Part shown: piece by piece, positions 2,817 through 62,538 of the stretch | How positions within the stretch are numbered: position 1 is the stretch's first letter | Layout: each line of letters begins with the position of its first letter | From: Methanobacteriota archaeon | GTDB taxonomy: Archaea; Thermoplasmatota; Poseidoniia; Poseidoniales; Poseidoniaceae | Assembly (NCBI GenBank): GCA_004195635.1 | Contig: PSPT01000002.1 | Coordinates: 26,200-90,199 of the forward strand | DNA length: 64,000 bases | Direction of reading: 5' to 3' | The notes under the pieces: model-generated | Database searches by the model: none | Seen by the model: only the letters and a program-made list of their open reading frames with translations | What the model was told of the DNA's origin: nothing | Translations under genes and position numbers: made by a program

Positions 2817-2946
2817 GGCTTTCAAACTGCACAAAGGGTTCTATTTGATAAATAGACAGGCTCAATGGGATGTGGCTTTAGAATAATTTCGACTTTTTTC
2901 GCACCATATTGGCGCTGCTGAAAAAAGAGTGCTGAGTGGTTGTTGT

Positions 2947-41411: not shown

Positions 41412-41540
41412 TGCCGGGAGCGGGGCTTGAACCCGCGACCTTCGGATGTCTCAGACATCATCTTGGCTGACTTTTCAGCGCGACTCGTGCAAAATTGCTG
41501 CCCTATGAGTCCGACGCGCCACCAACTACGCCACCCCGGC
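41412..41540 (-). tRNA. tRNA with anticodon CAU (elongator Met or Ile2) containing a 56-nt intron at 37/38
   Basis: The exons are GCCGGGG-UG-GCGU-AGUUGGUG-GCGC-G-UCGGA-CUCAUA and A-UCCGA-AGGUC-GCGGG-UUCAAGC-CCCGC-UCCCGGC-A. All four stems pair. G1-C72 excludes an initiator tRNA. CCA is not encoded. Confidence 0.7.
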
Positions 41541-41617: not shown

Positions 41618-42589
41618 ATGGTGAGGGGCAGAATACATGAGGTAAGTCGTTGTCGGCGATACATGGTTGACCTCTCAACTGCCATGGCTGCAGCCGGAGC
41701 CGAACGCGGTAAGCGCCAAAAAGGAGATAAAGAAAAGAGAGGTAAATCTGGGCGGAAACATGGCCTTGAGCCCTTTGACCCACAAAAGTATGTGGCCAAG
41801 GAAAAAGCCGACACTGCGTCCATGTGGCTTGTACTCTTTTTCGCCCTTCTTATTGGTTCAATCACAAGATATATCTTCATGCCCACTCTCGATGGAAGTG
41901 GTGGAAATGACCTTCTTTGGGTTGGCCCATTGGCAATGATTATCCTCATTCCTGCTATTCATCGTCACTTAATGCCGCAGAGTTTTGTTGAGCATTATAC
42001 TTCGCAAACTTGGATCAAAGCCGGCTTTCTTTATACCTTCACTTGGTTAGCAGTATCATTCCTATTAACCAATCCCCCCTTTGGAGATATTGGTTCTCCT
42101 GAACCTTCTGCAGGCTGGACAATAATTCTTGAAGATGGTAGTGATTGGTATATGCCACAGGATAACTTAACCTCTAAGAATACAATTTTTTGGGAAGCAA
42201 CCGATGGTAGTGATGACCCATTCCTTGCAGGTGAGGCTTGGTTGTTATTTGCAATTGCAGATAATGCTGACCCAAATGATGCAAATTTCAAGGTTTCAAT
42301 AAGCAAAGATGGCGAAAATTCTACTGAACTGAATATTTCTGAATCAGAATGGGACCGGATGATGGCTGGACGGATTTCGGCAACAGAAGCATCTGTAAAT
42401 TCCTCAATTGAATCTCACGATGTAGTGTTAGTTGATAATGATGCAGACCGGCCTATTGCGATAAACCTCGGTGAAGATCTTGCAGTCGGAATTTATAGTA
42501 TTAGTTTTGAAGTGACTGAGCAGGGCGAGCCATGGGTTAATACAAATTCATGGACTTGGAAGTTGATAATTACTGAACAAGAAGCCTAA
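41618..42589 (+). CDS. Hypothetical membrane protein with acidic extracellular C-terminal domain
   Basis: A basic N-terminus and 3-4 TM helices are followed by a D/E-rich ~170-aa domain. The start codon is uncertain; internal ATGs at MVDLS and MAAAG are possible. Confidence 0.45.
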   Translation: MVRGRIHEVSRCRRYMVDLSTAMAAAGAERGKRQKGDKEKRGKSGRKHGLEPFDPQKYVAKEKADTASMWLVLFFALLIGSITRYIFMPTLDGSGGNDLLWVGPLAMIILIPAIHRHLMPQSFVEHYTSQTWIKAGFLYTFTWLAVSFLLTNPPFGDIGSPEPSAGWTIILEDGSDWYMPQDNLTSKNTIFWEATDGSDDPFLAGEAWLLFAIADNADPNDANFKVSISKDGENSTELNISESEWDRMMAGRISATEASVNSSIESHDVVLVDNDADRPIAINLGEDLAVGIYSISFEVTEQGEPWVNTNSWTWKLIITEQEA

Positions 42590-43940: not shown

Positions 43941-44068
43941 CTGATTCGTAGTGCGGTTGCGGCAATGCTCAATGAACATTCCCATTGTAAAATCACCTTC
44001 AAATATGTACAGTACAGAAGTCCGTTAAGGAACGCACTTATGACCCATAACTGCCTCGCCATAGGCGA

Positions 44069-47000
44069 GTGCTTATGTCAGCCGCGCCAATTACCTTAGA
44101 TTCTCGCTTCAAAACTCTATTATTTATAGCCATGTTTTTGTTTGCCGACATTGCTATTCCTGCTTTTTTTCCGGCTGAAGAATTGGAAGAAATAAATGAA
44201 AGATCATTCGCCGTTTACAATTACGGTGCGAGTAAAGATGCAATGATTGATAGTTCTGCTGCCAATAATAACTTTGGCACCTCAACGACAGCATCTATTG
44301 GCCCTAATGCAATTATAGGCGAATCAAGAATGCTCATAGATTTTAACATTAATTTATCCTCAAGTGCAAATATTTCAAGTGCAGTATTAGATTTGACTTG
44401 CAGTACAAATGCTACTGTAACTGGCACAACATTTTTTGTCGCAACTTTAAGCCAAGCATTTCAAGAAAATTCTACAAACTGGTTGAATGCAGATAATACA
44501 ACGGGATGGGATATGCCCGGTGCTGATGGAGATGCAGATAGAGGTGCGTGGGAACCACCTCATGAGGAAAATGCAAATGGCACTTTTTCACTCAATGTTA
44601 CGACCTTCGTTCAAAGCGCAGCAGCTGCCAACTCAACGACTCTTGGTTTCGTGATTTCGGCAATTGGGGCACAGTATTCATGCAGCACCAAAGAAACACT
44701 AAATCCTTCTGCAAGCCCAACGTTATTGGTCACTTGGGGTGCAGGTACGCCTTCTGCAAAGGGTCAATTAACTTCTAATTTTGTGACTGATGGAAATGCA
44801 CTAATGTCCTCTGATTTCATGTTAAATGCAGAATTAGACCCTACCTTTAGTTGGATGAATATGCAAGGCAGTCAAGTTGAATTCCAATTGTCTTATGAAC
44901 CTTCATTTAAATCTGATATTGATAGTTATTGGTATTTAAATTCCAATCTTAATAGCACTTTTCAAATGTCTTCAAGCAGCGGCTCTGTTAATATCCCTAG
45001 CGAAAATGCCTTCATTAATGGTTCGTCCTATTTCTATCGTCTACGTGCTGTAAACGGTGATCAAGTTGGCGATTGGGAAACCGGATATTTCCATTCACCT
45101 GACCTTTCTGTAAGCGATAATGGCGATGGAACTGCAACAATATTGTTCAACTCAAATAGTATGGGATTAATTACCGATGCAATTGAGGACACAAGTTTGG
45201 ATGAAAGTAATAATGGAGGTAATACCGCACTGGGGAGCCAAACTGCAATTGTTACAGGGATGTCTTTGCCAACTACCGACCAATATGGGTTGTTGCGATT
45301 TAATGCCAATACTTTTGGAATGCATCAAAATGCAACCATTGAAATGGCAGAGTTAGTCATGACTCGCTCTTCATACAATAGTGCGGCAATAGTTTCTCTT
45401 CATCAGATGGATGAAAATGCAAATTGGACCGAGGAAAGTGCAACATTCAATACTCCTAATGGAGTTGGGACTTGGAATGATGGTGGTCGAGATTTGACCT
45501 CATCAGCAATAGACTCTCTTTGGCTAAATCAAACAAGTAGTGAATTCCGCTTTGACATTACTTCATCTTACCAACATTGGTTGGATGATGGAGTCAATGG
45601 TGATTTATCATATTGGACAACTGTGCGTGGAATAGATGAATCACATTCTGCAAATACCAATATTCAATGGCATTCAACTGACTATACTACCTCTAGTGAT
45701 CAACCTTTATTGGAGATAACATACTCTTGGGGTAGTGGGGCTTCACCTTACCCAGTAAACCAACTCACCCCTATTGATGGAAGTGGGGCTTGGACAATGA
45801 CTGGTTTTAACCTAAGTGGAAATACGACACCTTCTCTAACTTGGGACGGAACAAATTCTTCAACAAATTCCTATGACATTATTTTCCAACTTTCAAGTGA
45901 CCGTGATTTCCGCAATATCATTGCTGAGGTCGACACCTCATCTAATAACGACTTCGCAGCGAGTGATGGAATCTTCAATTTGTCTGCTCCCCATGGTCTT
46001 GTGACTGGTGGCATTTACGGCTGGAGGATGGCTCACATGGGTTCAGATGGGCATGCCTCCGAGTGGACAGAATCAAACTTCTTTGTCCCAGGGATTAATT
46101 CAACATATCTTGGAAATGACCTTTATGAATTGCGTTTCAAACAAGGCAACTCGTCTTCATTCCTTAATCAACCTGCTTGCCGCGACTCCTATATTGATAG
46201 CGGTAGCCCAACAGATAATTATGGGGGGGAAATGGAAATTCAGACTTCCTACAATTCTTTCTCACAGGCCAATATTCTTTGGGGTTGTGATCTTTCAGGG
46301 CATATGTTGCCAAATGGTATAGCAGTTACTGATGCTTCACTTTCAATGGCATTATCATATGCTGGGTCTTCTCCGAGTGTTGGCGCTTGGGAAAACTTGC
46401 AACATAATTGGACTGAAAATGAAGTTACTTGGAACACCTATGATGGAACAAATAATTGGGGTGTTGGAGGTGCATCAGGTTGGGAGCGAGGTAGTTTATT
46501 GGATTCTACAACTATTCCTACAAGTTCTTCCACAGGTACAACATTTGAATGGAATATCACCCAAGGTGTTCAAAGTTCAATGCGAGGGAATGGGCAAGTG
46601 GATGTGATTCTAACTGTTCTAAATACTGGCAGTAATCCCGATGCTCTTCTATACTCAAATGAAGCCAGTGGTGCATACCTTCCAGAATTGGTTATAATTT
46701 TCACCCCAGGTTCTAATTCAATACCAGCTAATCCTGTTTTGGTTTCACCTGCTAATGCGTCGTGGGCGGTCGAAAGTGGCATTGAACCTGCTCCCATATT
46801 GCGACCCGAATTGTCTTGGTCAATGACCAGTAACGTCTCAATTACCGGCTGGGTTGTTGAATTAGATACTCTTTCTTCTTTCAATGGCCCTAATTTGCAA
46901 ACCTTTGCATCTTGGAATTCACTTGGGTTTGACATGCAAAATCAAACTTTCACGACAAATCAAGATTTGGCTAATGGTAAAGTGTGGAATTGGCGAGTAA

Positions 47001-50000
47001 GGGGAGTTTCTTCAACAAATCAATTAGGTGGATGGTCTCCAACTAATAATTTCCTTCTTCCCGATCTCACAACTTGGAGGCTTGATAGCAATACTTCTGC
47101 AATTGAATTACACCACGAAGAAGCAATCCCTCAATTGAACCTTCCAAGTTTCACAGATACTTGGGTTGTAGATAGTGGTTCATACTTTAACGCCGCTCAA
47201 AATTCTAGTGACGTCCTCAAGGTTGGAACACTAACATCGGGTGCAAGGGTAACTTCGTTACTTCACATCCCAATAAATGAATTACCTTCTCCTTCAAATG
47301 CTCATGTGGCCGCGGCTACAATAAATCTTTATGCAAACTGGGGGGCATCTACTTCCCAGCATATTTCGATTCACCCTTCTGCCGTAGCATGGACTTCTTC
47401 AGCGAATGGTTTGACTTATGATGGCGTTAATAATTGGAGCGCAAATGGCTCTCTGGGTATGAATGATGTAGGGGGCATGGTTGATGTTCATCCAGTGACC
47501 CATGCTTCGTGGAACCAATTTGATATAACCGAGATTATGCAAGAGGCAACCTTGGCTGGACAGACATATATTGCCTTGACAATAATGGGTGATATTGGAA
47601 ATGGATTGGTCGAATTCGCCTCAACTGATGCTTCAAGCAACACTCCTTGGCTGAATGTTACTTGGACAACTGGCAATGCTTCTTCCGTAGCACAGACAGG
47701 TTCACCTTCTTCGCCAAGTGATGGTACAATTTTGTGGGGCAATGGTTCACATGCAATGCTTCCTGCAGAAACACCAACGCTTACTTGGACTCACCAAAAC
47801 CCTTCTTCTGTTGATGACTGGCGGCTCTTTCTTTGGACAAATGGAAGTAATGAAAGAGAAGGTTGGCTTGTACATGATACTCGTGATTCTCTTTCCGGCT
47901 TTGATATCGCAAATCTTTCTTGGACACCTGCAATATCACAAACTAGTGGTAAGACTCAAAGATGGTTTGTGCAACCAATTATCAATGACATTCTCGGTCC
48001 ACGAAGTAGTAATTATCATTATTATTTACCGACTCAAATGAGTGATGAAATTAATTCAACTGACGCTTGGCTTAGTGTTGTAGAGGGCGCTTTAGTACCA
48101 GACATTTCTTATGCTCATGTAATTGAGGATACTTGGATTTACAGTGCAGCCCAATCCACAAACTACGGTAATGCTACGAATATTAATATTGGACAAAGTA
48201 GTAGTGGATATCGCTCACATGGATTGCTTGAAATTGACGTTTCAGTCTTGCCTGTACCTGCTCCATACGAAGTAGTAAGTGCAACTGTGAAAATGTACCG
48301 ATTGTCGGGAGTTAATTCGGATGTTGAAATATCGGTGTCAGACTTATATCGTGATTTCAGTGAAGTAAATGCAACTTGGAATGAATACGAAACTAATCAA
48401 AGTTGGTCTCAATCAGGAGCAATAGGAACAACTGATTCAGCACTCAGCACTTCCGTTAGTACTGTTTCCTCAACAGGATGGATCACATGGGATGTAACAC
48501 AACTCGCACAAGCAGCAGTAGCTCGTGGGGACGAAACATTACGCCTATTATTCCAGCCTGTGAATGGCACAGGAACCCACCTTTTCTCCTCCTCAAATAA
48601 TATTCTCTCTCTACGTCCACAACTAAACATGACAATTAGAACTGGAAGCCAATGGCTACCAAGCGAATCAACATCCTTGTTGCCGGTAAGTGGTTCTACA
48701 ATGTGGAATCTGTCTGCATCCCTTCCATCTGGTATGGATAATATCGACTTGAGTTGGTCCTCTAGCCTCTCCAATGTATCCTATCACTTGCAAAGAGGTA
48801 CTGATTCATCATTCATAAATGTAGATGATATTTATTCAAATGATACAGGGACATGGGGAAATGGTGATTTTGATGTAACAAACCAGACATATTCTCTCTT
48901 AGCAGCAGATGCTGGGATTGATGAGTGGAATTACTGGCGTGTTCGCTCAATACAAGGGCACATTATTGGAAATTGGTCACAAGTCAATCTCTTTAGAGTG
49001 CCCGGGGATCATGGTTCTGACGATGGAACTGGAAATCTAACTTTGAATTTACAACGAGGTACGGTCTTTGTTAATACGAGTGTCGTGCCTTTGGTTCCTG
49101 ATGTTACTATTGATTCCTCCTTTGCCTCAACCAACACCGGTTCTTCTTCAGCACTCTACCTTGGAGTCAGTAATTCCGGCACTGGGGAATCAAGGATTCT
49201 TATGGAATTTGACCTAAACGAGTTGCCTTTCCCTGCAAATATGACTCCAACTAGTACGGTATTGTCATTGTATAGAACTGGAATATCAGGTGGGCAAGGA
49301 TTGACAGTTGCAGTATATCCATGTTCGTCATATTCTGAATCTGGAGCGACATGGAATAATGCTCCAACTTGCAGTACAACAGAAATCACTCGTAGTACTA
49401 TTGGTGTTGTTCCACCTACTGGATGGTTGCAGTGGGATATTACTTCACTTGCACAATCAAATGTCGCAAATGGTAATTATACCTTGACGGTGATGTTAGC
49501 AGTCGTCGGTACGCCAGGTGCAAGTCATTCATTCTACAGTAGCGATTCCTCTTCAACGACATATCGTCCTCAGTTATCCTTTGAATATGTAGATAATTCA
49601 AATGGCACTCAACCACCTGCACAACCTACTTTGGTATATCCTACTGATGGCGATGTACTGTACGATAATTCTAACTGGACTCTAGCGCCAATCCAGAGGC
49701 CGGTTTTGCAATGGAATCCTGTGGCAAATGCTACTGCTTATGTGTTGACAATTTCTAATAACTCGGGGCAGACAAAATTCCGTTCTTGGACGAACAGTGG
49801 TTTCTCGGGAGCAAATTATACATTCCAGTCTGATCTCAGTTCCGGTGAATCATATCAATGGTGGGTTCAAGCGATAAATGGTTCAATCCCAGGTCCAGCG
49901 AGTAGTAGATGGTCTTTTGCAATTGGCAACCCAATTAATAATACAGATAATTCAGATAATACCTATACATATTGGTTAAGGCATGGCGCTGAAGTTGCAG

Positions 50001-53000
50001 ACTTCGGCCATGTATCTATTCTCGATTCAACCATAAAATCAGCAAATGCAGATACTGCCTTTGAGGATTCAGATTTACAAATCGGGTCAACTTCATCAGG
50101 TGATGAAATGCGAGCATTTGTTGTCCTAGATACAAGTTCATTACCCCTAAACCCCAATGCTAGAGTTCACTCAGCAAGTGTTGGGTTATATGTCGAATCT
50201 GTAAGTTTATTCGCTGGTGTTCCTATGACTACCTTTACCATTTCTGCTCACCCACTTTTGGGTAGCGGATATACACCTCTTGGCACTACATGGAATGATG
50301 TTACTGCAAATGCGCCTTGGGGTGCACCCGGGCTGCAATCTGGAGTAGATTACGGGCTTGCAAGTGGAACTGTGACATTTAATGTCGCCAATGGATTTAC
50401 CGGTTGGGTTTGGCTCGATCTCTCACAATCAGGGCTAGATTTAACATCAAGTCATCCATATGTGTTAATTGGTTCTGGACAAGCATACTTGAATATCGCA
50501 CATTCTCAAGATACAAATGAAGATCATCGACCAGTGATGTTGATGAATTATACTACTGTTGATAGTATTGCTATTAGCCCAGGGCTTGGTACAACTACTG
50601 ATGCCGATACGGCTGTGCAATTTAGTTTCAGTATGTATGATGCAAATAGCCAAGCAATTGCAGGTAATGTAGAATGGGATGCTGAAAATGGTAGTATCTC
50701 AAGTGCGGGAATGTATATTCCACACACTGTCGGCATTTGGGACGTTTCCGCTTGTTTCGGACTACGGTGTGAGATAATACAAATCCAAGTCACACCTGGT
50801 GTAGCAGTATCTCATGTTGTCACTCCGCTTTCGGGTACAATTACTGCCGATGAAAGTTTTGATATTCAAGTAAAGGTACTTGACCAATATTCAAATCAAG
50901 TTATTGGAGAAATAATAAATTGGCAAGCTACCAACGGCTCCTTTGTAACCATCAGCCCTCCATCGGGATGGAATGAAGCAGCCACTTTCATGCCATGGGC
51001 AAAAGGTCCACAGATAGTATCGGTTGAATGGAATGGAGTATCTATCAATGTCAACATTCAAGTTCATCCAGGAATTGCAGATTATTTTGAGATTGGCGCA
51101 TGTGCCGATGGTGACTTGATTGTACCTGCTGGAACAACCTGTCAGTTAGCATGGCAACTTTATGATGCCAATGACAACATGCTACCTGATAGTGCAGCAG
51201 GAAATGTTTCTTGGACAGTTCAAGCTGCTGGTGGAAATATTAGCAATGGCGCGTTTGAAGCAGACCACATTGGTGAGTGGATAATAAATCTAACAAGTGC
51301 AAGCGGGGTAAATGCCACTACAAATATCACCGTCGTTTACGGAGTTATTGAATCACTTGAACTTTCGGCGAGCGATTTATACATTACTGCAGACGAAGTA
51401 ATTTATCTAAACACAACTAGAATTGATATCAAAGGCAATAGATTACAAATCGACTTGCCTGCAGAAAATTGGACTATTGCTAGCGGATGGATCACTCCAG
51501 GTACGGGAGGTGCCCCTGCTGTTTGGGAACCAGAGGATGTTGGAAGCAAAGTGATTACTGCGTCTTATGATGGTTTACAATCTTCAGTAAATATTGGTAT
51601 TTCACATGGAATTCTTATTGATTTAGAAGTAGATATTACAACTTTGAATAACATCACTGCTGATGAATCTTCAGTTTTGAAAGCATTTGGAGTTGACTCC
51701 AAGGCAAACCGCTGGCCGGTAACCGTGCTATGGCGAGTTATCCAAGATCCACAAAACAACCAAGGTTGGTTATCTGATACAAACTGGTCTCAAACTACCT
51801 TTGACCCGACTTCGGTAGGGTCCTTTGATGTTAGTGCAGTCTATACAGATGATGCATCAAACTTTTACAATGTTGATACAAATTATGTCATCACTCATGG
51901 AATCCTTGCGGGTGTTTCCTTTGATTCCCCTGCAACTAATGACCCTCATTGGTCAGATGATATGTTTGAAATAACTGCAGACGAGGATGTTCAAATCGCA
52001 GTTTCTCTTGCTGATTCTAATGGTAATCAAATTGATAATGATATTCTCAATTGGACTGTCAATGGTGTTGAAGTGACTTCTGAAATGGTTCTCTCAAATT
52101 TCCTTTGGGATGGAGAGCAGACGATAGGTGAATATGTGATAAAGGCTACAAATGGCTCATTCTACGACATTATTACTGTTAATGTAAGTCACGGAAGGGC
52201 ACTTGTAGTAACTCATGCACAGAGTGCAAATTCTGTTGAGGCAGGTAACTCCCTTACCGTACAAATGACCGGGACAGATGCTGCGGGTAACCAATTTGCT
52301 CAAGATGTATCTTGGGCTGGTGGCGATTTGTCAAAGACCGCTGATGGTGCCTACCAATATGATGCGACAACTGCAGGCTCATACACCTTGACATTCTCAT
52401 TACCTGGTGCCCAAGGCGGAGACTGGAATTTGGAAGTATCCCCAACCTATCTTGATCATTTCGATGTTGTAATTGATAAATCAACAGTAGAACAATTAGA
52501 GAAAATCACAATGTCCATTGAAGCATATGACCGCTTTAATAATCCGTTACAGGTGCCAAGTGGTACGCAATTATCGGTACAAGCAAGTGGAAGAGGCGAA
52601 ATATCGGGCAGTGGGAATTCTTACTCTGTAACTACTTTAGAAGAAGGTGTACATAGCATGACAGTTTCAAGTAATGTAAATGGCAATGTTGTTAGTGCAA
52701 GTGCATCATACAATGTAACCGGTAATATGGCTGGGTTCTTTGCAGCAGGTGGCACCCTGTACTATGTTGGTGCAGGTTTAATTGGCTTAGTTTCACTAAT
52801 TCTATTTGTGCTTGTTATTGTTCTATTCCGAGGAAGTACTGATGACTATGATGATGAAGATTGGGAGGATGAAGAAGATGATGATGAAGTCAAAGACCAA
52901 CGTCCAATCCTTGAGCGAATTCAAAGTGTACCAAGTGAGCCAGAACCCGAACCAGAAGATAATTCTGCGGAAGAAACTGATGATGGAGTCACTGTAGATG

Positions 53001-53089
53001 AACACGGTGTTGAATGGTATGAGGACGAAACCGGTGTTTGGTGGAGCCGTGGACCTAATGATGAGGATTGGGAAGAGTTTGTTGAGTGA
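44069..53089 (+). CDS. Giant (3006 aa) surface protein: ~7 DNRLRE-like/FN3-like module pairs, then ~6 Ig-like (Big_2) domains, TM anchor and acidic cytoplasmic tail
   Basis: The N-terminus is a signal anchor. A repeated pattern D[ST]x[IL]...N.G...L[LM].FD...LP...A.[IV]..A.L.LY...W.E..[AV]TWN recurs at least 7 times. Each copy is followed by a W-containing FN3-like unit (e.g. WNWRVRG, WNYWRVRS). The C-terminal third contains VTPG...Ig-like repeats. The TM is LIGLVSLILFVLVIVLF. The protein is very rich in N-x-S/T sequons. Confidence 0.85.
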   Translation: MLMSAAPITLDSRFKTLLFIAMFLFADIAIPAFFPAEELEEINERSFAVYNYGASKDAMIDSSAANNNFGTSTTASIGPNAIIGESRMLIDFNINLSSSANISSAVLDLTCSTNATVTGTTFFVATLSQAFQENSTNWLNADNTTGWDMPGADGDADRGAWEPPHEENANGTFSLNVTTFVQSAAAANSTTLGFVISAIGAQYSCSTKETLNPSASPTLLVTWGAGTPSAKGQLTSNFVTDGNALMSSDFMLNAELDPTFSWMNMQGSQVEFQLSYEPSFKSDIDSYWYLNSNLNSTFQMSSSSGSVNIPSENAFINGSSYFYRLRAVNGDQVGDWETGYFHSPDLSVSDNGDGTATILFNSNSMGLITDAIEDTSLDESNNGGNTALGSQTAIVTGMSLPTTDQYGLLRFNANTFGMHQNATIEMAELVMTRSSYNSAAIVSLHQMDENANWTEESATFNTPNGVGTWNDGGRDLTSSAIDSLWLNQTSSEFRFDITSSYQHWLDDGVNGDLSYWTTVRGIDESHSANTNIQWHSTDYTTSSDQPLLEITYSWGSGASPYPVNQLTPIDGSGAWTMTGFNLSGNTTPSLTWDGTNSSTNSYDIIFQLSSDRDFRNIIAEVDTSSNNDFAASDGIFNLSAPHGLVTGGIYGWRMAHMGSDGHASEWTESNFFVPGINSTYLGNDLYELRFKQGNSSSFLNQPACRDSYIDSGSPTDNYGGEMEIQTSYNSFSQANILWGCDLSGHMLPNGIAVTDASLSMALSYAGSSPSVGAWENLQHNWTENEVTWNTYDGTNNWGVGGASGWERGSLLDSTTIPTSSSTGTTFEWNITQGVQSSMRGNGQVDVILTVLNTGSNPDALLYSNEASGAYLPELVIIFTPGSNSIPANPVLVSPANASWAVESGIEPAPILRPELSWSMTSNVSITGWVVELDTLSSFNGPNLQTFASWNSLGFDMQNQTFTTNQDLANGKVWNWRVRGVSSTNQLGGWSPTNNFLLPDLTTWRLDSNTSAIELHHEEAIPQLNLPSFTDTWVVDSGSYFNAAQNSSDVLKVGTLTSGARVTSLLHIPINELPSPSNAHVAAATINLYANWGASTSQHISIHPSAVAWTSSANGLTYDGVNNWSANGSLGMNDVGGMVDVHPVTHASWNQFDITEIMQEATLAGQTYIALTIMGDIGNGLVEFASTDASSNTPWLNVTWTTGNASSVAQTGSPSSPSDGTILWGNGSHAMLPAETPTLTWTHQNPSSVDDWRLFLWTNGSNEREGWLVHDTRDSLSGFDIANLSWTPAISQTSGKTQRWFVQPIINDILGPRSSNYHYYLPTQMSDEINSTDAWLSVVEGALVPDISYAHVIEDTWIYSAAQSTNYGNATNINIGQSSSGYRSHGLLEIDVSVLPVPAPYEVVSATVKMYRLSGVNSDVEISVSDLYRDFSEVNATWNEYETNQSWSQSGAIGTTDSALSTSVSTVSSTGWITWDVTQLAQAAVARGDETLRLLFQPVNGTGTHLFSSSNNILSLRPQLNMTIRTGSQWLPSESTSLLPVSGSTMWNLSASLPSGMDNIDLSWSSSLSNVSYHLQRGTDSSFINVDDIYSNDTGTWGNGDFDVTNQTYSLLAADAGIDEWNYWRVRSIQGHIIGNWSQVNLFRVPGDHGSDDGTGNLTLNLQRGTVFVNTSVVPLVPDVTIDSSFASTNTGSSSALYLGVSNSGTGESRILMEFDLNELPFPANMTPTSTVLSLYRTGISGGQGLTVAVYPCSSYSESGATWNNAPTCSTTEITRSTIGVVPPTGWLQWDITSLAQSNVANGNYTLTVMLAVVGTPGASHSFYSSDSSSTTYRPQLSFEYVDNSNGTQPPAQPTLVYPTDGDVLYDNSNWTLAPIQRPVLQWNPVANATAYVLTISNNSGQTKFRSWTNSGFSGANYTFQSDLSSGESYQWWVQAINGSIPGPASSRWSFAIGNPINNTDNSDNTYTYWLRHGAEVADFGHVSILDSTIKSANADTAFEDSDLQIGSTSSGDEMRAFVVLDTSSLPLNPNARVHSASVGLYVESVSLFAGVPMTTFTISAHPLLGSGYTPLGTTWNDVTANAPWGAPGLQSGVDYGLASGTVTFNVANGFTGWVWLDLSQSGLDLTSSHPYVLIGSGQAYLNIAHSQDTNEDHRPVMLMNYTTVDSIAISPGLGTTTDADTAVQFSFSMYDANSQAIAGNVEWDAENGSISSAGMYIPHTVGIWDVSACFGLRCEIIQIQVTPGVAVSHVVTPLSGTITADESFDIQVKVLDQYSNQVIGEIINWQATNGSFVTISPPSGWNEAATFMPWAKGPQIVSVEWNGVSINVNIQVHPGIADYFEIGACADGDLIVPAGTTCQLAWQLYDANDNMLPDSAAGNVSWTVQAAGGNISNGAFEADHIGEWIINLTSASGVNATTNITVVYGVIESLELSASDLYITADEVIYLNTTRIDIKGNRLQIDLPAENWTIASGWITPGTGGAPAVWEPEDVGSKVITASYDGLQSSVNIGISHGILIDLEVDITTLNNITADESSVLKAFGVDSKANRWPVTVLWRVIQDPQNNQGWLSDTNWSQTTFDPTSVGSFDVSAVYTDDASNFYNVDTNYVITHGILAGVSFDSPATNDPHWSDDMFEITADEDVQIAVSLADSNGNQIDNDILNWTVNGVEVTSEMVLSNFLWDGEQTIGEYVIKATNGSFYDIITVNVSHGRALVVTHAQSANSVEAGNSLTVQMTGTDAAGNQFAQDVSWAGGDLSKTADGAYQYDATTAGSYTLTFSLPGAQGGDWNLEVSPTYLDHFDVVIDKSTVEQLEKITMSIEAYDRFNNPLQVPSGTQLSVQASGRGEISGSGNSYSVTTLEEGVHSMTVSSNVNGNVVSASASYNVTGNMAGFFAAGGTLYYVGAGLIGLVSLILFVLVIVLFRGSTDDYDDEDWEDEEDDDEVKDQRPILERIQSVPSEPEPEPEDNSAEETDDGVTVDEHGVEWYEDETGVWWSRGPNDEDWEEFVE

Positions 53090-53175: not shown

Positions 53176-55914
53176 GTGTACACCTTGCAAACCCACTCAC
53201 ACCCCACTCGCAGATGCCTCTCAATGCTTTTCTGTATGCTTTTCATGCTCAGTTTTCTAACCCCTCTTGTGAGTGCAGGGCCGGTAGTTAGAGTTGAAAT
53301 TGATCAACAACCTCCGATAAGCATTGATGCTGATAGCCAGTATCAATTTTCAGCCTCATTATTTGATTCATCTAATACTTCAGTTTCAGACACAATCACT
53401 TGGATGGCTAGTAATGGCAGTATTGATTCTGCAGGATTATTCACTGCCCATTCCACAGGTAATGTGACAATTCAAGCTTTTTCTAATGGCTATAATGATT
53501 CTGTGATAGTAAATGTTACAGCGGGTTGGCCTTCTCACCTTTCGCTTTCTGCTAATTTAACTGAAGTTCAACTCGGACATGGAATACAATTATTGCCTTC
53601 ATTAACCGATGCCCATGGAAATAGTGCATATGGGCATCAATTATCTTGGACAATTTCGCAAGGAATCGTGAATTCCTCAAATGTGTGGTTTCCAGACCAA
53701 GTTGGTAATGGAAGCATTGAAGTGCATTGGGGGGAACTCAGTAGTTCAGTGAATCTTTCAGCGACAACTGGGCCTGCTTTTTCAATGTCACTTCCAACTG
53801 GCCTCAGTGTGAGTTCAGGCAGTAGTATTGAAATTATTCCAATCGTCACTGATACTTGGGGCAATGTTCTTTCAAACCAAAGCATAGGTTCTCTTCAATG
53901 GACCTCGGAAAGTGGGAGTATCAACAATGGTGTATTCACTGCTAGTTCAACTGGCTATTGGCTCATTACCTGTGCGACAAGCAATGGGATAAGTGCTAAG
54001 GCGAACATCACCGTCACCTCTGCAACAATTGATAATGTTGAATTGGTTGTTGAAAACCGGACCTTTAGAGCAGACGAAGCGGTGGAATTGGTTGTAAAAA
54101 CTACAGATGTATATGGTAATGTTGAATATTCCACGCCTCTTCTTTCATCTTGGTCATTTGCTTCAGGTTCTCTTCGTTTTGGTCAAAACACAACTGAATG
54201 GTTACCCGGAAAAGTCGGAAATTGGACACTTTCACTGAACTATGCAGGATTCAATGTTAGTATTGTTATTGATGTAGTTCATGGCCATGCCGAGGAGATC
54301 TTATTGGTCACAGAAGGCAATAGAGTTAGTGCAGATGATGAAATAACCTTGTATATGCAAGCGAGTGATATTCGAAATAATCGCTGGGTAATAGTTGGGA
54401 CTTGGGAAATGAGTGATTCAAGTCAAGATGAAAACTTAGAATCATTTGGAACTTGGGCAAAATATGATGCCAATCTTGCTGGTGATTGGCAAATTGAGGG
54501 CGATTGGTTTGATGAGGCACAACAACAATTCTTCAGCGCCGAAATTACACTTTCGGTAATCCCTGGACGCCTAGCAAATATTATTCTTCAAGGAGGGGGT
54601 ACGACAATTTCAACGGATGAAATACTCGAACTCAACCCCATTTCAACTGATGAAGATGGAAATGTGATTGGCAATATTCTAATGAATTGGACGGTAGATG
54701 ATGTCGATGAAACAACATCCTTCCGCCTACATCGCGGAATATATTATCCTGAAGGTACCGGGTTGCATGAAATTAGGGCATTTGCTGATGGAGCCTTTAC
54801 TAGCATCATGGTCGAAGTAATTCCTGGGCGTGCAAGAAATATATTACTCGACATACCAGCAAATGTTCTTATTTCCTCGGGAAGTAATGGAGCGATTGCT
54901 TTTACAGCGACAGGTTTGGACCTTTCAAATAATTCATTTTTGATAAATGAAATGTCGTGGGTTATTCCTGAAGGTGCGGCAGAAATTTCTGCTGGTGCTT
55001 CTAATGGGGAATGGATATTGGAAGGTAAAAAATCAGGTGTTTGGGATATAGAATTAGTTTCTGAAGATGCTTCTCATTTCTTTGAATTAACCATACGTGC
55101 AGGCGATGCTGCCGTTATTGAATTAGTTATGTCTTCCGAGAATTTAAAGCAGGGAGATGAGTTATTGATTGATGTGCGAATATATGATTCGCATGGGAAT
55201 GATGTTGAAGTTTCTCCGGCAGATTTAGTTGTGAGCAGCACTGCTGGGAAAATCACTCATGTAAGAGATGGTAGTTGGTTAATCTCTCTAGATGAAGGAG
55301 GTACTGACCATGCAGTCACTATTCGCTTAGGCAATCTCACAGAGCAGCGTTTCTTTGATGTTCAAGAGGCATTACTTAGCGGCGTATTTGGTTCCTCAAA
55401 TGCGACAGTATTAGCGGGAATATCAGTACTCTCTGTGATTCTTGTAATGCTAATATTCCTGATGCGAAGGTCGAAAGGAGATAGCGGGGAATGGGTTAGT
55501 GAAAAAGTGGAACCACATATACCGCCAATAACGTCGCCCACCCCCGAGTACGAAGCGGAATCTACGGCCCCCACCTCCTCACCCGAGACTCCAACTATCA
55601 TCCTGACTCCTCCTGACACTGCAGAAGCCACACCATATGTTAATGCTGAAAGCGTCCCTGCTTACCCTCTCACTCAAGTCAACTCTGACCCATACACTGA
55701 GGCAGCAAATACCGGTGCGACTGAACAAATTTATTCAGAACCTGAAATAATGTCTGCCATCGCAATTGCTGCTGCTGAACAAGCCAAAGCAACAGGTGTA
55801 ATGGTTGCTGCTGAAGGTACAGTGCAAGGTGAATCGGGTTGGTATTATGATTCAAGTGGTGAATTAACAAATTGGCGCGTTGAAACAAATGGGGCATGGA
55901 CAAGGATACAATAG
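53176..55914 (+). CDS. Surface protein with ~9 Ig-like (Big_2-type) repeats, C-terminal TM and Tyr/Pro-containing cytoplasmic tail
   Basis: The signal peptide is MLFCMLFMLSFLTPLVSAG; the real start is probably at 53224/53236. Repeated ...VTAG / VIPG / VVHG-initiated ~90-aa units follow. The TM is AGISVLSVILVMLIFLM, and about 140 aa of tail follow. Confidence 0.8.
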   Translation: MYTLQTHSHPTRRCLSMLFCMLFMLSFLTPLVSAGPVVRVEIDQQPPISIDADSQYQFSASLFDSSNTSVSDTITWMASNGSIDSAGLFTAHSTGNVTIQAFSNGYNDSVIVNVTAGWPSHLSLSANLTEVQLGHGIQLLPSLTDAHGNSAYGHQLSWTISQGIVNSSNVWFPDQVGNGSIEVHWGELSSSVNLSATTGPAFSMSLPTGLSVSSGSSIEIIPIVTDTWGNVLSNQSIGSLQWTSESGSINNGVFTASSTGYWLITCATSNGISAKANITVTSATIDNVELVVENRTFRADEAVELVVKTTDVYGNVEYSTPLLSSWSFASGSLRFGQNTTEWLPGKVGNWTLSLNYAGFNVSIVIDVVHGHAEEILLVTEGNRVSADDEITLYMQASDIRNNRWVIVGTWEMSDSSQDENLESFGTWAKYDANLAGDWQIEGDWFDEAQQQFFSAEITLSVIPGRLANIILQGGGTTISTDEILELNPISTDEDGNVIGNILMNWTVDDVDETTSFRLHRGIYYPEGTGLHEIRAFADGAFTSIMVEVIPGRARNILLDIPANVLISSGSNGAIAFTATGLDLSNNSFLINEMSWVIPEGAAEISAGASNGEWILEGKKSGVWDIELVSEDASHFFELTIRAGDAAVIELVMSSENLKQGDELLIDVRIYDSHGNDVEVSPADLVVSSTAGKITHVRDGSWLISLDEGGTDHAVTIRLGNLTEQRFFDVQEALLSGVFGSSNATVLAGISVLSVILVMLIFLMRRSKGDSGEWVSEKVEPHIPPITSPTPEYEAESTAPTSSPETPTIILTPPDTAEATPYVNAESVPAYPLTQVNSDPYTEAANTGATEQIYSEPEIMSAIAIAAAEQAKATGVMVAAEGTVQGESGWYYDSSGELTNWRVETNGAWTRIQ

Positions 55915-55922
55915 GTGATTGA

Positions 55923-58433
55923 ATGAGAAAATTTGTGGCATTGATATTGATTGCTGTCTTGTTTAGCAGTGGTCTCGTCAATTCACTTCCTTTGTCGCAA
56001 GAGATGAATAAACAATTCACAATCCCAGGTTGTACAAATAATCCAAGTGTAGATTCAATTGAAATTAATTACCCCGGTTCAGGAAGCATTCCGGCTGACC
56101 AAGTTTTACAATTCAACGCTACAGTTCGTGATAATCTTTCTCAAGTATTGTCAACTTATCCTACTTGGGGAGCAAATAATGGCAGTATTGACCAAAATGG
56201 GCGTTTTGTTCCTTGGGCTACGGGTCCTGTTGAAATTTGGGCTTGTGCGGGCGATATCAATGAATCTGTGACAATCAATGTCCTTCAAGGAACAACAGTA
56301 GGCGCTGAACTATTGCTTCATTCCGAAAATGTGACTGCAGATGATTTAGTTGAATTGATGCCAATGCGAAAGGATGATCGGGGTAATTTGGCTCCCGTCC
56401 TCGTACCAACTGATAATTGGACTATCCCTGTTGGAAGCAGTTTGTCCGGGGCTTCTCCATTATTCTGGGTGCCTGGGGAAAAAGGTGAACAGGATATTTC
56501 TGTAAATATTATGGGATACGATGTTAGTCGAACTTTGAATGTGAGTATTGGGGTTGCACATCATTTACAAATTCAAACATCTTCAACCTCATATAATGCC
56601 GATCAAGAAATAGTGGTGCTACTTTCTTTGGTTGATCAAAAGGGCAATTATTGGGGAGTCTCTGGGCAATGGAATAGCGATTCTGAATTGCCACTGTCTA
56701 ATGATACTGGAGTTGAAGTATTTGCTTATCCTAGTGAAGTCGGTATTTGGCAAGTGGCTGCTACATATTCAGGGAATGAAACTGGCGGTGAGACTTGGTT
56801 TACATCAGTGAATCTTAGTATCAGTGCTGGAAGTCTTACTGCGACTGAAATCTCGGGTTTTTTAGTCGATCGAAGTGGAGTAGGCGTAGAGATAGGTTTC
56901 TTGGAAGGGATTGTGCAGATGACAACTGATGATCGATTTGTAATGTCTCCAGTATTACTTGATGCAGATGGCAACCCAATCGCAGTCTCTTCAGTGTTGT
57001 GGAGTTTGAGCGCTGATTACATAGAAGGAACTGAATTGTCAACTAACTTAGAATATTCCTTCGCTCCTGAATTAGTTGGAAACCACATTCTAACACTTAC
57101 TCCAGAAAGTGGAATCCCCGCTAGAATCACATTGGAAGTTCTTCATGGTGCTGCGGTTGAAGTTATTGTAAGTAATCGAGGCAATCCCGATTTGGTTGTG
57201 CCAATTGGAAGAAATTTGAGTATTGATGTAAAAGGAATTGATGGAAAAAACAATCACTTTCCAATGGATGTTGGTTGGATAATTCCTGCCCACGCAGGTA
57301 ATATCTCAAATGGCTCATTAGGAGTCGGAAATTATGAATATCAACCCGGCAATCAAACACCCTTGAAAGTACATACCTTTGTTGTACGAACTGCTCTTGG
57401 GCCACATGATGTTCCGGTAAGAGTAATCTTGGGGCAGCTCGATCATTTGACTTTACACATTGATTCAAATTTGCAACAAGGAGAGAAGGTACTTATTGGC
57501 ATCATTGGCCATGATGAGAATGGCAATCCTGTACCAATAGCAAATGGTGATGTTATTCTTTCAAGTTCAGCGGGAACAACAACTTATCGTAATGGTGAGC
57601 ATTATTTAAAATTAGAAAAGCAAGGGATTCAACATCAAGTGACTGCTGAATATGCAGGAATTGCTCCCTCTGTTGAGTTTATTGATATTGAAGCAACTTT
57701 ACTTGCTGGTGCATTTGGTTCTTCTGAAGTAGTCATTATGGGGGCGATTGTGATTGCCTCAATCATTTTGCTTTTGGTAGCAACCTTGACCTACAAAAAG
57801 TCTGGTGAGAGGGTCAAATATGATGATGAAATTATAGCTGAAAGAGAGGCTAAAAAAGAGGAATTGCGAAATTCATTGACACGTTCGGGAAGCGAAATAA
57901 ATGCATCTAATGAAGAAATGGCTGACAATTCAGCCCCTGGAAATGACAAGGAATACAATTCACTGCCGCCCGTTACTTCACCTCCCCTCGTAGCACAAGG
58001 ATTGGCAGTTCAACCAGCATCAATGCCTCCACCTTTGCCGCCGTTCGCACCTATGCCTTTCGCAGCACCACCTCTGCCCGTCTCCACCACTCTTACCCCT
58101 CCGCTCAATGAATTTTCTACACTCTCACAGCCAAATGCCTTCGCCGCTCCTCCCCCTATTCTGCCAGTTGCGCCTTTGCTTCTAGCACCAGTCATTGACA
58201 ACTCAGTTCAACAGGCAGCCTCATCTCCTTACATTCAGACAAGCATTAATGCCCAAGATGCTCTTGCTCTGTTGGGCTCAAGTAGCGATGAGGAGGTTCA
58301 AATCGAAGCAGAAACTTCGACCTTTATTGCTCTTTTATCCGATCCACCTTTACCGGCAGAAGGACTACCTCAAGGTTGGACAATGGCTCAATGGTCTCAT
58401 TATGGTGAAGAATGGTTGAAAAACCAATCTTAG
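55923..58433 (+). CDS. Surface protein paralog with Ig-like (Big_2-type) repeats, C-terminal TM and proline-rich cytoplasmic tail
   Basis: It lies 9 nt after the previous gene. The signal peptide is ILIAVLFSSGLVNS. The Ig-like repeats are paralogous to the upstream gene. The TM is IMGAIVIASIILLLVATL. The tail contains PPPLPPFAPMPFAAPPLP. Confidence 0.8.
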   Translation: MRKFVALILIAVLFSSGLVNSLPLSQEMNKQFTIPGCTNNPSVDSIEINYPGSGSIPADQVLQFNATVRDNLSQVLSTYPTWGANNGSIDQNGRFVPWATGPVEIWACAGDINESVTINVLQGTTVGAELLLHSENVTADDLVELMPMRKDDRGNLAPVLVPTDNWTIPVGSSLSGASPLFWVPGEKGEQDISVNIMGYDVSRTLNVSIGVAHHLQIQTSSTSYNADQEIVVLLSLVDQKGNYWGVSGQWNSDSELPLSNDTGVEVFAYPSEVGIWQVAATYSGNETGGETWFTSVNLSISAGSLTATEISGFLVDRSGVGVEIGFLEGIVQMTTDDRFVMSPVLLDADGNPIAVSSVLWSLSADYIEGTELSTNLEYSFAPELVGNHILTLTPESGIPARITLEVLHGAAVEVIVSNRGNPDLVVPIGRNLSIDVKGIDGKNNHFPMDVGWIIPAHAGNISNGSLGVGNYEYQPGNQTPLKVHTFVVRTALGPHDVPVRVILGQLDHLTLHIDSNLQQGEKVLIGIIGHDENGNPVPIANGDVILSSSAGTTTYRNGEHYLKLEKQGIQHQVTAEYAGIAPSVEFIDIEATLLAGAFGSSEVVIMGAIVIASIILLLVATLTYKKSGERVKYDDEIIAEREAKKEELRNSLTRSGSEINASNEEMADNSAPGNDKEYNSLPPVTSPPLVAQGLAVQPASMPPPLPPFAPMPFAAPPLPVSTTLTPPLNEFSTLSQPNAFAAPPPILPVAPLLLAPVIDNSVQQAASSPYIQTSINAQDALALLGSSSDEEVQIEAETSTFIALLSDPPLPAEGLPQGWTMAQWSHYGEEWLKNQS

Positions 58434-59420: not shown

Positions 59421-61112
59421 TTAAGTTTCCGAATGATGTTCTACTGACTTGGTAAATTCATCAATATCCACTACTCCATCACCATTTTCGTCGGCAGCAT
59501 GGAAATATTCTCTAAGTGCATCATGACCTTCTGTGCAACATCTCAAGGCCTCCATTGCAGCAATAAATTCATGCAAATTAAGGTGATTATTGCCTTCCCT
59601 ATCTGCTGCGTGGAATGCGGTTATTCTACGGCGGCGTTCTGCTTCATCAGCGTTAATAAACATCAGTTTGAATGTTTTCCATGGTGTGATTTTTGGTTGA
59701 TAGTGCTTTTTTCCATAGCCAAAGAAAATAACTCCTCCAATCATTATTGCTGTTCCTCCACCAATAACTGCCTCCTTGCCCATGATAAAGAGCAAACACA
59801 GTCCTGCAAGAACGCCAAATAATTGAGTTGCTGGTCTAAATGGTGCATCATATTCAGGTACATACCAAGCATGAGAGGGAGTTGCTTTTCTAAGTATCAA
59901 TACACATAAGCACATTAATACATAAACCATTATTTGGAAGCCAGATGCGTATTCTGCAACAGCATGAACATCAATGGTGACTAGGGCAATAGCCATCGCT
60001 CCCGCAGTTACAATAATCGCCCAATGTGGCGTTTCAAATTTCCCATGTACATCTTCTAGGAATTCTGGTAACAAGTTATCTCGTGACATTGCGTAAAGAT
60101 ATCTTGAGGCAGCAAGGATTCCAGCAAGTGCCATTGAGGTCATTGTGAGAACTGCAATTGCTGCTGCAATAAGTCCAATTGTTGAACCACCAATTATCTC
60201 TGCAAAAACTCGAACAGGATCCTCAATTGCATGACCTGAAGAATCGAAGAAAGATTCATGCGGAATAACAGCAACCATTGTGGCCACCATTATCGCATAT
60301 AATATGGCGCCAATTGCCAAAGAAGTCATTATACCTCCGGGGAGATTACGACCTGGATTTTTCACTTCTTCACCAATTGCTGCTACTTTAGCAACACCTG
60401 CATATGAGACTAGAACAAATGCCGCAGCCTCACCCATTAGCATCCAATCATCTGGCCCATGCAAATCAACTGAGGCGCGTGAATAATCAGCATCTCCGTT
60501 AATAATTGCCCAGAATGTAAGCACAATGAGCATAAGGATTGATAATGTAACTATTGGTGTTTGAACAACCTTTATTTTTTTCATACCCAAAATATTTACT
60601 AGTGCGATTAATATTAACATGCTGAGAGCGCTAGCCAAAGCAGAAAAGTCACTACCCCACCATTCTTGTAATATCATCAAATATGCCGAAAAACCAATCA
60701 ATGCAAATGCAGCCTTCAGCAAAAATGAAGCCCAAAGACCCAAACCGGTCATTGTCCCAAACAATGGTCCAAAAGTGCGTTCTACGAAAACATATGACCC
60801 TCCCGAAGTTGGCATTGCAGAGGCAAGCTCACTTTGAGATAATGCTCCCGGAATAACTACCATTGCAGCCAAAATATATGCTAGCCAAACTCCTCCTCCT
60901 ACCATAGCATAGGCAAGGGAAGGTAATACGAATAATCCACTTCCAATCATTGCAGATAATGAAATAATAATGACTGAAAACAAACCTAATTTCCTTTCAA
61001 GTGTATCAGAAACCATCTCAAGCGGCTGGAGTACGATGCCCACAAGGTCCTTGGGATTGGTGGGCGTCATATCTGTTCCAAGCAAAACGGATAGTTGAAC
61101 ATTGCTTCTCAA
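59421..61112 (-). CDS. APC-family amino-acid permease with C-terminal cytoplasmic EF-hand pair
   Basis: It has 12 TM helices with the APC N-terminal GSGLFVLP motif. The C-terminal 80 aa contain DENGDGVVDIDE, a canonical 12-residue EF-hand loop, preceded by a degenerate loop DREGNNHLNLHE. Confidence 0.75.
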   Translation of the reverse strand: MRSNVQLSVLLGTDMTPTNPKDLVGIVLQPLEMVSDTLERKLGLFSVIIISLSAMIGSGLFVLPSLAYAMVGGGVWLAYILAAMVVIPGALSQSELASAMPTSGGSYVFVERTFGPLFGTMTGLGLWASFLLKAAFALIGFSAYLMILQEWWGSDFSALASALSMLILIALVNILGMKKIKVVQTPIVTLSILMLIVLTFWAIINGDADYSRASVDLHGPDDWMLMGEAAAFVLVSYAGVAKVAAIGEEVKNPGRNLPGGIMTSLAIGAILYAIMVATMVAVIPHESFFDSSGHAIEDPVRVFAEIIGGSTIGLIAAAIAVLTMTSMALAGILAASRYLYAMSRDNLLPEFLEDVHGKFETPHWAIIVTAGAMAIALVTIDVHAVAEYASGFQIMVYVLMCLCVLILRKATPSHAWYVPEYDAPFRPATQLFGVLAGLCLLFIMGKEAVIGGGTAIMIGGVIFFGYGKKHYQPKITPWKTFKLMFINADEAERRRRITAFHAADREGNNHLNLHEFIAAMEALRCCTEGHDALREYFHAADENGDGVVDIDEFTKSVEHHSET

Positions 61113-62537: not shown

Positions 62538-62538
62538 T

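Follow-up and report, generated by a model that had tools for sequence, protein, structure and literature searches.

We analysed a 64,000-nucleotide stretch of DNA from a Poseidoniaceae (Marine Group IIa, MGIIa) archaeon (GenBank assembly GCA_004195635.1, contig PSPT01000002.1, positions 26,200 to 90,199; referred to below as the window) and found that one of its genes, the giant gene, encodes a real, conserved and uncharacterised protein made of known domain types. The giant protein begins with a signal peptide, which is followed by six pairs of a DNRLRE/CBM96 module (D1-D6) and an FN3-like spacer (F1-F6), a seventh DNRLRE module (D7), eight immunoglobulin-like (Ig-like) domains, a single transmembrane helix and an acidic cytoplasmic tail; together these parts account for all 3,004 residues. 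We propose, at what we judge to be about even chances, that this protein is a long membrane-anchored surface fibre whose seven non-redundant binding modules mediate multivalent attachment to extracellular polymers or particles. Marine Group II (MGII) archaea are among the most abundant archaea of the surface ocean and are uncultured, and their attachment and food have been inferred from gene lists only. Seven distinct, individually conserved modules of a binding type would provide concrete reagents for studying MGII attachment.

The giant gene is an uninterrupted open reading frame (ORF; 44069..53089, plus strand) of 3,006 codons counted from GTG, intact as reported in a first-pass annotation made from the sequence alone. 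Because the N-termini of the orthologues begin with MS..., we favour the ATG at 44075 as the likely start, which yields the 3,004-residue protein. The GC content of the gene (0.41-0.43) is in line with that of the remaining window, and the other small ORFs that overlap it on both strands are all short. The first-pass annotation had described a surface protein with DNRLRE-type modules, FN3-like modules and an Ig-like array. This architecture is correct, and none of the outcomes that would have refuted that proposal was obtained here: DNRLRE matches, FN3-like matches and a sevenfold D array were all recovered.

Seven DNRLRE/CBM96 modules alternate with six FN3-like spacers

Profile searches placed the D modules in a known family. 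Seven stretches of the giant protein matched the NCBIfam model NF033679 (DNRLRE_dom; 351 bits, cut-off 34, E = 8.5e-106), and six matched the Pfam model CBM96 (PF24517; 206 bits, cut-off 26, E = 3.5e-61). The seven NF033679 stretches bear out the earlier estimate of about seven DNRLRE-type copies, and the four peptides quoted in support of that estimate belong to D2, D3, D5 and D7. Using a hidden Markov model (HMM) made from the copies themselves to set the boundaries of D1-D7, we found a repeat period of 313-324 residues (~320), comprising a D module of ~170-190 residues and an F spacer of ~140 residues, in place of the ~120-residue pattern that had been described.

In addition, we modelled D6, the one D module treated in this way, together with F6 using AlphaFold2 and an alignment that combined orthologues with paralogous modules. 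The resulting model had a predicted local distance difference test (pLDDT) score of 88.1, with D6 itself at ~90, and a predicted TM-score (pTM) of 0.81. In a Foldseek comparison with the PDB, the top match was 8WAB (TM-score 0.76, root-mean-square deviation 3.1 Å, E = 3e-10, 23% identity), followed by 7VBO as the second match to D6 (TM-score 0.73). A sequence profile of the D domains identified the same two structures in the PDB (7VBO, E = 4e-11; 8WAB, E = 2.4e-8). As modelled, D6 has the beta-sandwich fold of these solved CBM96 members.

The F1-F6 spacers are mutually homologous, with cross-matches down to ~5e-8 in single-sequence phmmer searches. In the PDB, a profile of 24 F sequences matched an FN3 array of titin (summed E = 1.2e-7) as well as FN3con (E = 0.014). 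When the F sequences were compared individually with Pfam, four of the 24 matched fn3 (PF00041; best E = 4.7e-6) and seven matched Ig_Rha78A_N; the scan of the full-length giant protein returned no match to Pfam fn3. Foldseek aligns the all-beta F6 half of the model with titin Fn3-56 (TM-score 0.52) and with FN3 domains of Ihog, sDscam and DCC, so that F6, as modelled, is a seven-strand beta-sandwich of the FN3 type. Of the approximately seven DNRLRE-FN3 pairs proposed in the first-pass annotation, the FN3-like identity is upheld by the predicted fold of F6, with a mixed picture from the sequence models, while the count is not: there are six FN3-like units rather than seven because D7 directly adjoins the Ig-like array.

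A search for DNA-level repeats within the giant gene detected none, and the repeats are therefore ancient and visible at the protein level only. A recent tandem duplication or an assembly artefact, which could also generate a repetitive gene, is ruled out by the lack of DNA repeats, by the low identity between modules within one giant protein (12-34%) and by the identical architecture of ~40 orthologues.

An Ig-like stalk connects the array to a conserved membrane anchor

The region that follows D7 shows a ~90-residue self-repeat and a recurring invariant D..D..GN pattern. An AlphaFold2 model of this stalk (731 residues; pLDDT 86.6, pTM 0.35) is entirely beta and consists of eight sandwiches. 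Foldseek matches with E values of 1e-12 to 1e-24 included NUP210, DSCAM Ig1-8, the neck and base of Aureispira GhpA, and the S-layer (surface-layer) proteins Sap, SbsB, SbsC and EA1. Pfam Big_1 and Big_3 were found below threshold in the giant protein, and Big_2 above threshold in a downstream paralogue. Self-repeat, model and Foldseek thus converge on eight tandem ~90-residue beta-sandwiches, which substantiates the Ig-like array noted at first pass. The stalk is also 24-27% identical to the ectodomains encoded by the two genes immediately downstream, and the stalk of the first of these paralogues is homologous to residues 2174-2858 of the giant protein.

At the N-terminus, a K/R-rich start followed by the motif MFLFADLxLPQ is common to the signal-like segments of the orthologues. 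At the other end, no segment of the giant protein is better conserved than the transmembrane helix (58% identity to distant orthologues). The C-terminal 89 residues carry a net charge of -32, and the tail ends in the motif RVDEDGTEWxEDExGxWWYRxxGxxxWxEW, which spans the last ~32 residues (52991-53086). This motif gave no match to Pfam up to an E value of 10, including the WW-domain. We rejected a WW-domain identity given this empty Pfam result and a comparison of a tail profile with the PDB that yielded only NHL/'Pizza' beta-hairpin repeats. The PGF-CTERM model did not match the giant protein, for which the NCBIfam scan returned DNRLRE_dom alone. The tail of the first downstream paralogue ends in a variant of this motif (GWYYDSSGELTNWRVETNGAWTRIQ), and in two orthologues of 3,000 residues that variant takes the place of the usual tail end.

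Short Trp-rich cytoplasmic end-motifs with a core of the D-x-x-G-x-x-W type are present in three adjacent type-I proteins (52991-53086, 55830-55911 and 58370-58430, all on the plus strand). Between the 912-residue paralogue and its orthologue in the related locus L002, the last 39 residues are 64% identical and the ectodomains ~30%. The coordinates of all parts of the giant protein and of both downstream paralogues are listed in Table 1.

Table 1. Parts of the giant protein and the two paralogues encoded downstream
Feature	Residues	Coordinates	Strand	Evidence or remarks
Signal-peptide-like segment	1-35	44075..44179	+	Basic n-region, then hydrophobic FKTLLFIAMFLFADIAIPAFFPA; hydropathy segment at residues 12-34
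D1, DNRLRE/CBM96	48-221	44216..44737	+	HMM; invariant Cys pair C109/C203
F1, FN3-like spacer	222-360	44738..45154	+	phmmer, FN3 profile matches
D2, DNRLRE/CBM96	361-550	45155..45724	+	HMM
F2, FN3-like spacer	551-696	45725..46162	+	phmmer, FN3 profile matches
D3, DNRLRE/CBM96	697-876	46163..46702	+	HMM; invariant Cys pair C702/C738
F3, FN3-like spacer	877-1020	46703..47134	+	phmmer; sub-threshold Pfam Ig_Rha78A_N at residues 910-993
D4, DNRLRE/CBM96	1021-1197	47135..47665	+	HMM
F4, FN3-like spacer	1198-1344	47666..48106	+	phmmer
D5, DNRLRE/CBM96	1345-1521	48107..48637	+	HMM
F5, FN3-like spacer	1522-1668	48638..49078	+	phmmer
D6, DNRLRE/CBM96	1669-1838	49079..49588	+	Best Pfam/NCBIfam stretch; invariant Cys pair C1750/C1766
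F6, FN3-like spacer	1839-1976	49589..50002	+	All-beta sandwich model, Foldseek FN3 matches
D7, DNRLRE/CBM96	1977-2159	50003..50551	+	HMM
Stalk of eight Ig-like beta-sandwich domains	2160-2885	50552..52729	+	Self-repeat, AlphaFold2, Foldseek
First four Ig-like domains	2160-2242, 2243-2333, 2334-2423, 2424-2512			Approximate boundaries
Last four Ig-like domains	2513-2609, 2610-2707, 2708-2791, 2792-2884			Approximate boundaries
Single transmembrane helix	~2893-2918	52751..52828	+	GTLYYVGAGLIGLVSLILFVLVIVLF; hydropathy 3.1
Cytoplasmic tail	86 residues	52829..53086	+	Acidic run, variable Pro/Gly/Ser linker, conserved terminal motif
First downstream paralogue	896 residues from ATG 53224	53224..55914	+	Signal peptide, Ig-like stalk, transmembrane helix, tail ending GWYYDSSGELTNWRVETNGAWTRIQ
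Second downstream paralogue	836 residues	55923..58433	+	Signal peptide, shorter Ig-like stalk, transmembrane helix, Pro-rich tail ending GWTMAQWSHYGEEWLKNQS

The array is fixed in number and order across the family

To place the giant protein in its family, we combined several searches. A scan of GTDB genomes identified the giant gene at 94% identity in a metagenome-assembled genome (MAG) named 'Methanobacteriota archaeon' and at 39% in a Candidatus Poseidoniaceae MAG. A word-indexed search recovered 24 full-length relatives of 2,999-3,063 residues with 36-41% identity, in addition to two close ones, and an HMM search of 1.84 billion representatives gave ~14 clusters at 50% identity (2,997-3,090 residues), each with seven D-F stretches. 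Overall, ~40 orthologues of 2,997-3,090 residues share the same architecture, and the order (D-F)x6-D occurs in every full-length homologue. All those proteins from the 1.84-billion-sequence search that alternate D and F and were checked proved to be colinear fragments or orthologues of this family; unrelated proteins in that search carry tandem D arrays without this F spacer. Members, including partial copies, are named 'DNRLRE domain-containing protein' [Candidatus Poseidoniaceae / Poseidoniales archaeon] at NCBI, and no published description of the giant protein was found in the literature on CBM96, DNRLRE, MGII adhesion or giant proteins.

Comparison of modules between species showed that those at the same position are 35-56% identical, compared to 17-25% for different positions, a level no different from that between modules of a single protein. 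For D1, same-position identity is 36%, versus 17-22% to other positions, and for D3 it reaches 52%. This positional orthology indicates that the sevenfold array is older than the split between these lineages and has stayed fixed since. Furthermore, the conserved polar, aromatic or Cys residues differ from one D position to the next, and this position-specific conservation argues that the seven modules are non-redundant.

Each of the ten cysteines of the giant protein is retained without exception among distant orthologues (22 of 22). They form five nearby pairs, in D1, D3 and D6 and two in the stalk (2227/2232 and 2343/2356), an arrangement as would be expected for extracellular disulfides. 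Together with the signal-like segment, the one C-terminal transmembrane helix and the bead-on-a-string appearance of the all-beta model, these invariant pairs give good support to the cell-surface fibre that the first-pass annotation had predicted. We also counted 71 N-glycosylation sequons (2.4 per 100 residues), compared to 48 +/- 5.7 in shuffled sequences. The sequons called very dense at first pass are thus enriched (1.5-fold, z = 4.0) without reaching an extreme density. The enrichment is alike in eight orthologues, and 28 of the 71 sequons are kept in at least half of the distant orthologues, which are ~38% identical; judged from these sites, heavy glycosylation of the giant protein is plausible. 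Its ectodomain has a net charge of -203, and Lys makes up 0.8% of the giant protein.

Conservation of this kind also bears on the main alternative, in which the giant protein would have a structural role in the cell envelope, as a glycoprotein of an S-layer-like coat or of a glycocalyx 'canopy'. Together with its two paralogues, it would be a constitutive component of the Poseidoniaceae surface, and its DNRLRE and FN3 modules would engage in protein-protein or protein-glycan contacts within a lattice instead of binding external ligands. Archaeal S-layer and other surface proteins are the setting in which the DNRLRE domain was originally described (PMC2447325, PMC9971899), and the stalk model matches the bacterial S-layer proteins named above, though such matches are generic to Ig arrays. 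All ~40 full-length relatives strictly keep both length and module order, and the locus is syntenic with housekeeping genes. The transmembrane helix, at 58%, is the most conserved segment, and a chassis of stalk, transmembrane helix and tail is common to the two adjacent paralogues. The sequons are conserved, and the acidic, Lys-poor composition is that of other surface proteins of the window. An envelope role is kept alive by an architecture that does not vary, by core-genome synteny and by the conservation of the transmembrane helix and tail.

Nevertheless, we consider this role unlikely. Abundance, lattice formation and oligomerisation are not in evidence, and the stalk pTM of 0.35 is more consistent with a flexible string than with a compact lattice unit. 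In addition, a lattice does not need seven non-redundant modules of one fold, and the archaeal S-layer subunits known to us are much smaller than a monomer of 3,000 residues. Haloarchaeal S-layer glycoproteins, for example, are lattice-forming proteins of ~800-900 residues with PGF-CTERM or lipid-anchor processing. The giant protein resembles them in being acidic, all-beta, N-glycosylated (here by prediction) and anchored to the membrane at its C-terminus, but differs in giving no PGF-CTERM match and in carrying an 86-residue cytoplasmic tail after the transmembrane helix.

The characterised CBM96 binding site is not conserved in the D modules

The founding member of CBM96 is TM6-N4, a module of the alginate lyase Dp0100 from Defluviitalea phaphyphila (PDB 7VBO), in which alginate binding depends on K10, K22, K25, K27, K31, R36 and Y159 (PMC9971899). 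The D modules resemble TM6-N4 in their membership of PF24517/NF033679, in their beta-sandwich fold (as modelled for D6) and in retaining the framework residue W84 and the ..R.L..FD.. (DNRLRE) region. In contrast to TM6-N4, which is a single module on a catalytic lyase with a Lys/Arg-lined groove and Tyr159, the giant protein presents seven acidic modules without an enzyme. Likewise, 8WAB, a chondroitin-sulfate-binding carbohydrate-binding module (CBM) of a chondroitinase that is itself annotated as a 'DNRLRE domain-containing protein', is both the best structural match to D6 and a profile match. However, 8WAB is carried as an appendage by a bacterial polysaccharide lyase and binds an anionic glycosaminoglycan, whereas the archaeal modules contain few Lys residues and are strongly acidic.

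Residue by residue, the alginate-binding positions of TM6-N4 are mostly occupied by G, S, A or T in D1-D7 and their orthologues, in an alignment that is approximate at 17-23% identity. The matches are solely a Lys at position 25 (D4) and a Tyr at position 159 (D7). D1-D7 are thus CBM96/DNRLRE members by sequence and, as modelled for D6, by fold, in which the characterised binding site is not conserved. Since the TM6-N4 residues are absent, the binding mode cannot be a Lys/Arg-lined groove for anionic polysaccharides, and we rejected alginate- or glycosaminoglycan-type binding via a basic groove as a mechanism, although the modules may bind some other glycan. The 'glycan-binding' and 'lectin-like' labels of the first-pass annotation had been inferred from family membership only, and the comparison with TM6-N4 does not support them. 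The giant protein also falls outside the CAZy definition of a CBM as a non-catalytic module of a carbohydrate-active enzyme, as its 3,004 residues include no catalytic domain. These results show the CBM96/DNRLRE fold in use in archaea outside an enzyme context and without the characterised binding residues, and they caution that the family name alone is no ground for a 'carbohydrate-binding' annotation.

We additionally considered whether the giant protein could be an enzyme of the Methanosarcina disaggregatase type, that is, a surface polysaccharide depolymerase with DNRLRE repeats. Faint matches to Pfam Disaggr_repeat (PF06848) are precomputed for several orthologues, and DNRLRE domains do occur in disaggregatase and in polysaccharide lyases. 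The Methanosarcina DNRLRE surface proteins and disaggregatase (Adindla et al. 2004, PMC2447325) likewise belong to the archaeal cell surface and carry one or more DNRLRE domains of ~200 residues. They combine these with different partners, including a catalytic region in disaggregatase; compared to them, the strict alternation of D and FN3, the Ig-like stalk and the anchor of transmembrane helix plus tail are specific to the Poseidoniales family. In the giant protein all 3,004 residues are assigned, both modelled regions are pure beta-sandwich, and neither Pfam nor NCBIfam detects a catalytic domain. An enzymatic role of this or another type has next to no probability in our view, and we regard it as effectively refuted.

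A proposed fibre for multivalent attachment

The analysis above shows the domain content and order, the folds and topology as predicted, the positional orthology with its fixed architecture, the sequon enrichment and the Cys pairs. Beyond these, we infer four features of the proposed attachment fibre, namely binding by the modules, a glycan as the ligand, an extended shape and a partner for the tail. A Sec-type signal sequence would direct the protein to the membrane as an extended, probably N-glycosylated type-I protein. The Ig-like stalk (the proximal ~725 residues) and the FN3-like spacers would hold the seven D modules (within the distal ~2,100 residues) off the membrane; if extended, the 21 domains would span ~80-90 nm, as estimated from domain sizes. 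Each independently conserved module position would present its own binding surface, and the modules may jointly bind polymeric extracellular material so as to attach to it or capture it, with glycans or glycoconjugates from algae or particles as the most plausible ligands. Through its conserved transmembrane helix and tail, the fibre would be docked to a partner in the cytoplasm or the membrane.

The giant bacterial adhesins Marinomonas MpIBP and Salmonella SiiE combine an extender with a ligand-binding region. Similar to these proteins and to the Aureispira grappling-hook protein GhpA, whose neck and base segments are matched by the stalk model in Foldseek, the giant protein has a long array of Ig-like beads that could project binding modules from the cell. 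The bacterial proteins depend on type I (T1SS) or other secretion systems and an outer-membrane or cell-wall anchor, and their repeat number is usually variable, whereas the giant protein is archaeal, with a C-terminal transmembrane helix, a cytoplasmic tail and a fixed module count. In support of a binding function, both characterised CBM96 members are polysaccharide-binding modules (PMC9971899). Particle and cell adhesion have been proposed for Poseidoniaceae (PMC6461757), and such an adhesive ecology fits multivalent attachment.

Several observations weigh against an attachment fibre of this kind. Each D module contains just 2-7 Lys and Arg residues, the net charge per module lies between -7 and -20, and the TM6-N4 positions are mostly not retained, as described above. 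Scans with Pfam and NCBIfam identified no catalytic domain of a carbohydrate-active enzyme in the giant protein, and no catalytic carbohydrate-active genes were seen among the neighbours examined, which are housekeeping genes. Typical adhesins evolve fast and vary in repeat number; the giant protein is unlike them, with length and architecture invariant throughout the family (2,997-3,090 residues) and a conserved core synteny. Finally, the DNRLRE fold also resembles the protein-binding prodomains of TGF-beta/BMP and activin (PMC9971899 Table 3), and the DNRLRE domain on a polyhydroxybutyrate (PHB) depolymerase is predicted to have a neutral, flat surface (PMC12278694). In light of the prodomain likeness and the PHB depolymerase case, family membership leaves the ligand class unfixed.

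A second alternative is an adhesin or receptor for protein ligands or whole cells, such as phytoplankton, conspecifics or viruses. The DNRLRE modules would serve as protein-binding beta-sandwiches like the arm of the TGF-beta/BMP prodomain, and the conserved tail might signal to the cytoplasm that a ligand has been engaged. The D modules lack the canonical sugar-binding residues, the transmembrane helix and terminal tail motif are conserved, and two tail types interchange between the giant protein and a paralogue, all of which is consistent with such a receptor. Yet no partner has been identified, the tail motif lacks a match to any known interaction domain, and the neighbourhood contains no signalling genes. 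We regard a protein-ligand or receptor role as possible but improbable. Most speculatively, the giant protein and its two paralogues might constitute a transmembrane adhesion-receptor system with an integrin-like outside-in link via the transmembrane helix and Trp-rich tail, or else the principal envelope scaffold of MGII; we would be surprised by either. If the former were true, seven ligand-specific heads would engage polymers or cells, and the tail would couple them to an intracellular partner.

Genomic context and other features of the window

The genes around the giant gene are archaeal in character, with the small subunit of replication factor C (RFC), a tRNA and, in a further ORF, the N-terminal domain of an archaeal pilin. 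Synteny is kept at 38-39% identity on both sides: upstream it covers a Big_9 membrane protein, an acyl-CoA carboxyltransferase, an asparaginase-like gene and the RFC small subunit, and from the giant gene onward the stalk paralogue, an amino-acid permease, LigB and panB. The first downstream paralogue adjoins the giant gene in the related loci L002 and L003 as well, and the second is present in L001 and absent from L003.

Immediately upstream of the giant gene, TATA-like AT-rich boxes were noted by eye only. A perfect inverted repeat with 6-bp arms and a 3-nt loop (CTCGCC-ATA-GGCGAG; 44055-44069, plus strand) ends 6 nt before the ATG. It is kept with an altered loop in L001 (CTCGCC-GTA-GGCGAG) and is not evident in L002 or L003.

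The window is unusually rich in large surface proteins. A second giant ORF (9194-22834, plus strand; 4,546 residues) contains a cupredoxin/plastocyanin-like domain at residues 3116-3196 and, in an unusual placement near its C-terminus, an archaeal type IV pilin N-terminal domain (residues 4373-4417); it has one N-terminal and two C-terminal hydrophobic segments. Two further genes on the plus strand, at 35301-38153 and 5747-8539, encode acidic, Lys-poor type-I surface proteins of ~930-950 residues with a C-terminal transmembrane segment (Big_9/cadherin-like and PKD-like, respectively), the former being syntenic in L001, L002 and L003.

Between the asparaginase-like gene and RFC lies a 323-residue ORF (41618-42589, plus strand) with one transmembrane segment and no Pfam match. 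It is 41% identical in L002, and the corresponding interval of L003 instead holds an ABC transporter pair and small ORFs. The tRNA (41412-41540, minus strand) was detected by Rfam only (129 nt, 52 bits) and was not reported by ARAGORN; it is probably interrupted by an intron, which fits an archaeal host. Downstream, on the minus strand, the permease (59421-61112; AA_permease_2) is unusually fused to a C-terminal pair of EF-hands (residues 497-554), and this EF-hand end has a tblastn match in L002. The adjacent gene (61152-62633, minus strand) fuses a LigB-type extradiol dioxygenase to a RidA/L-PSP endoribonuclease-type domain, and the same fusion occurs in L003.

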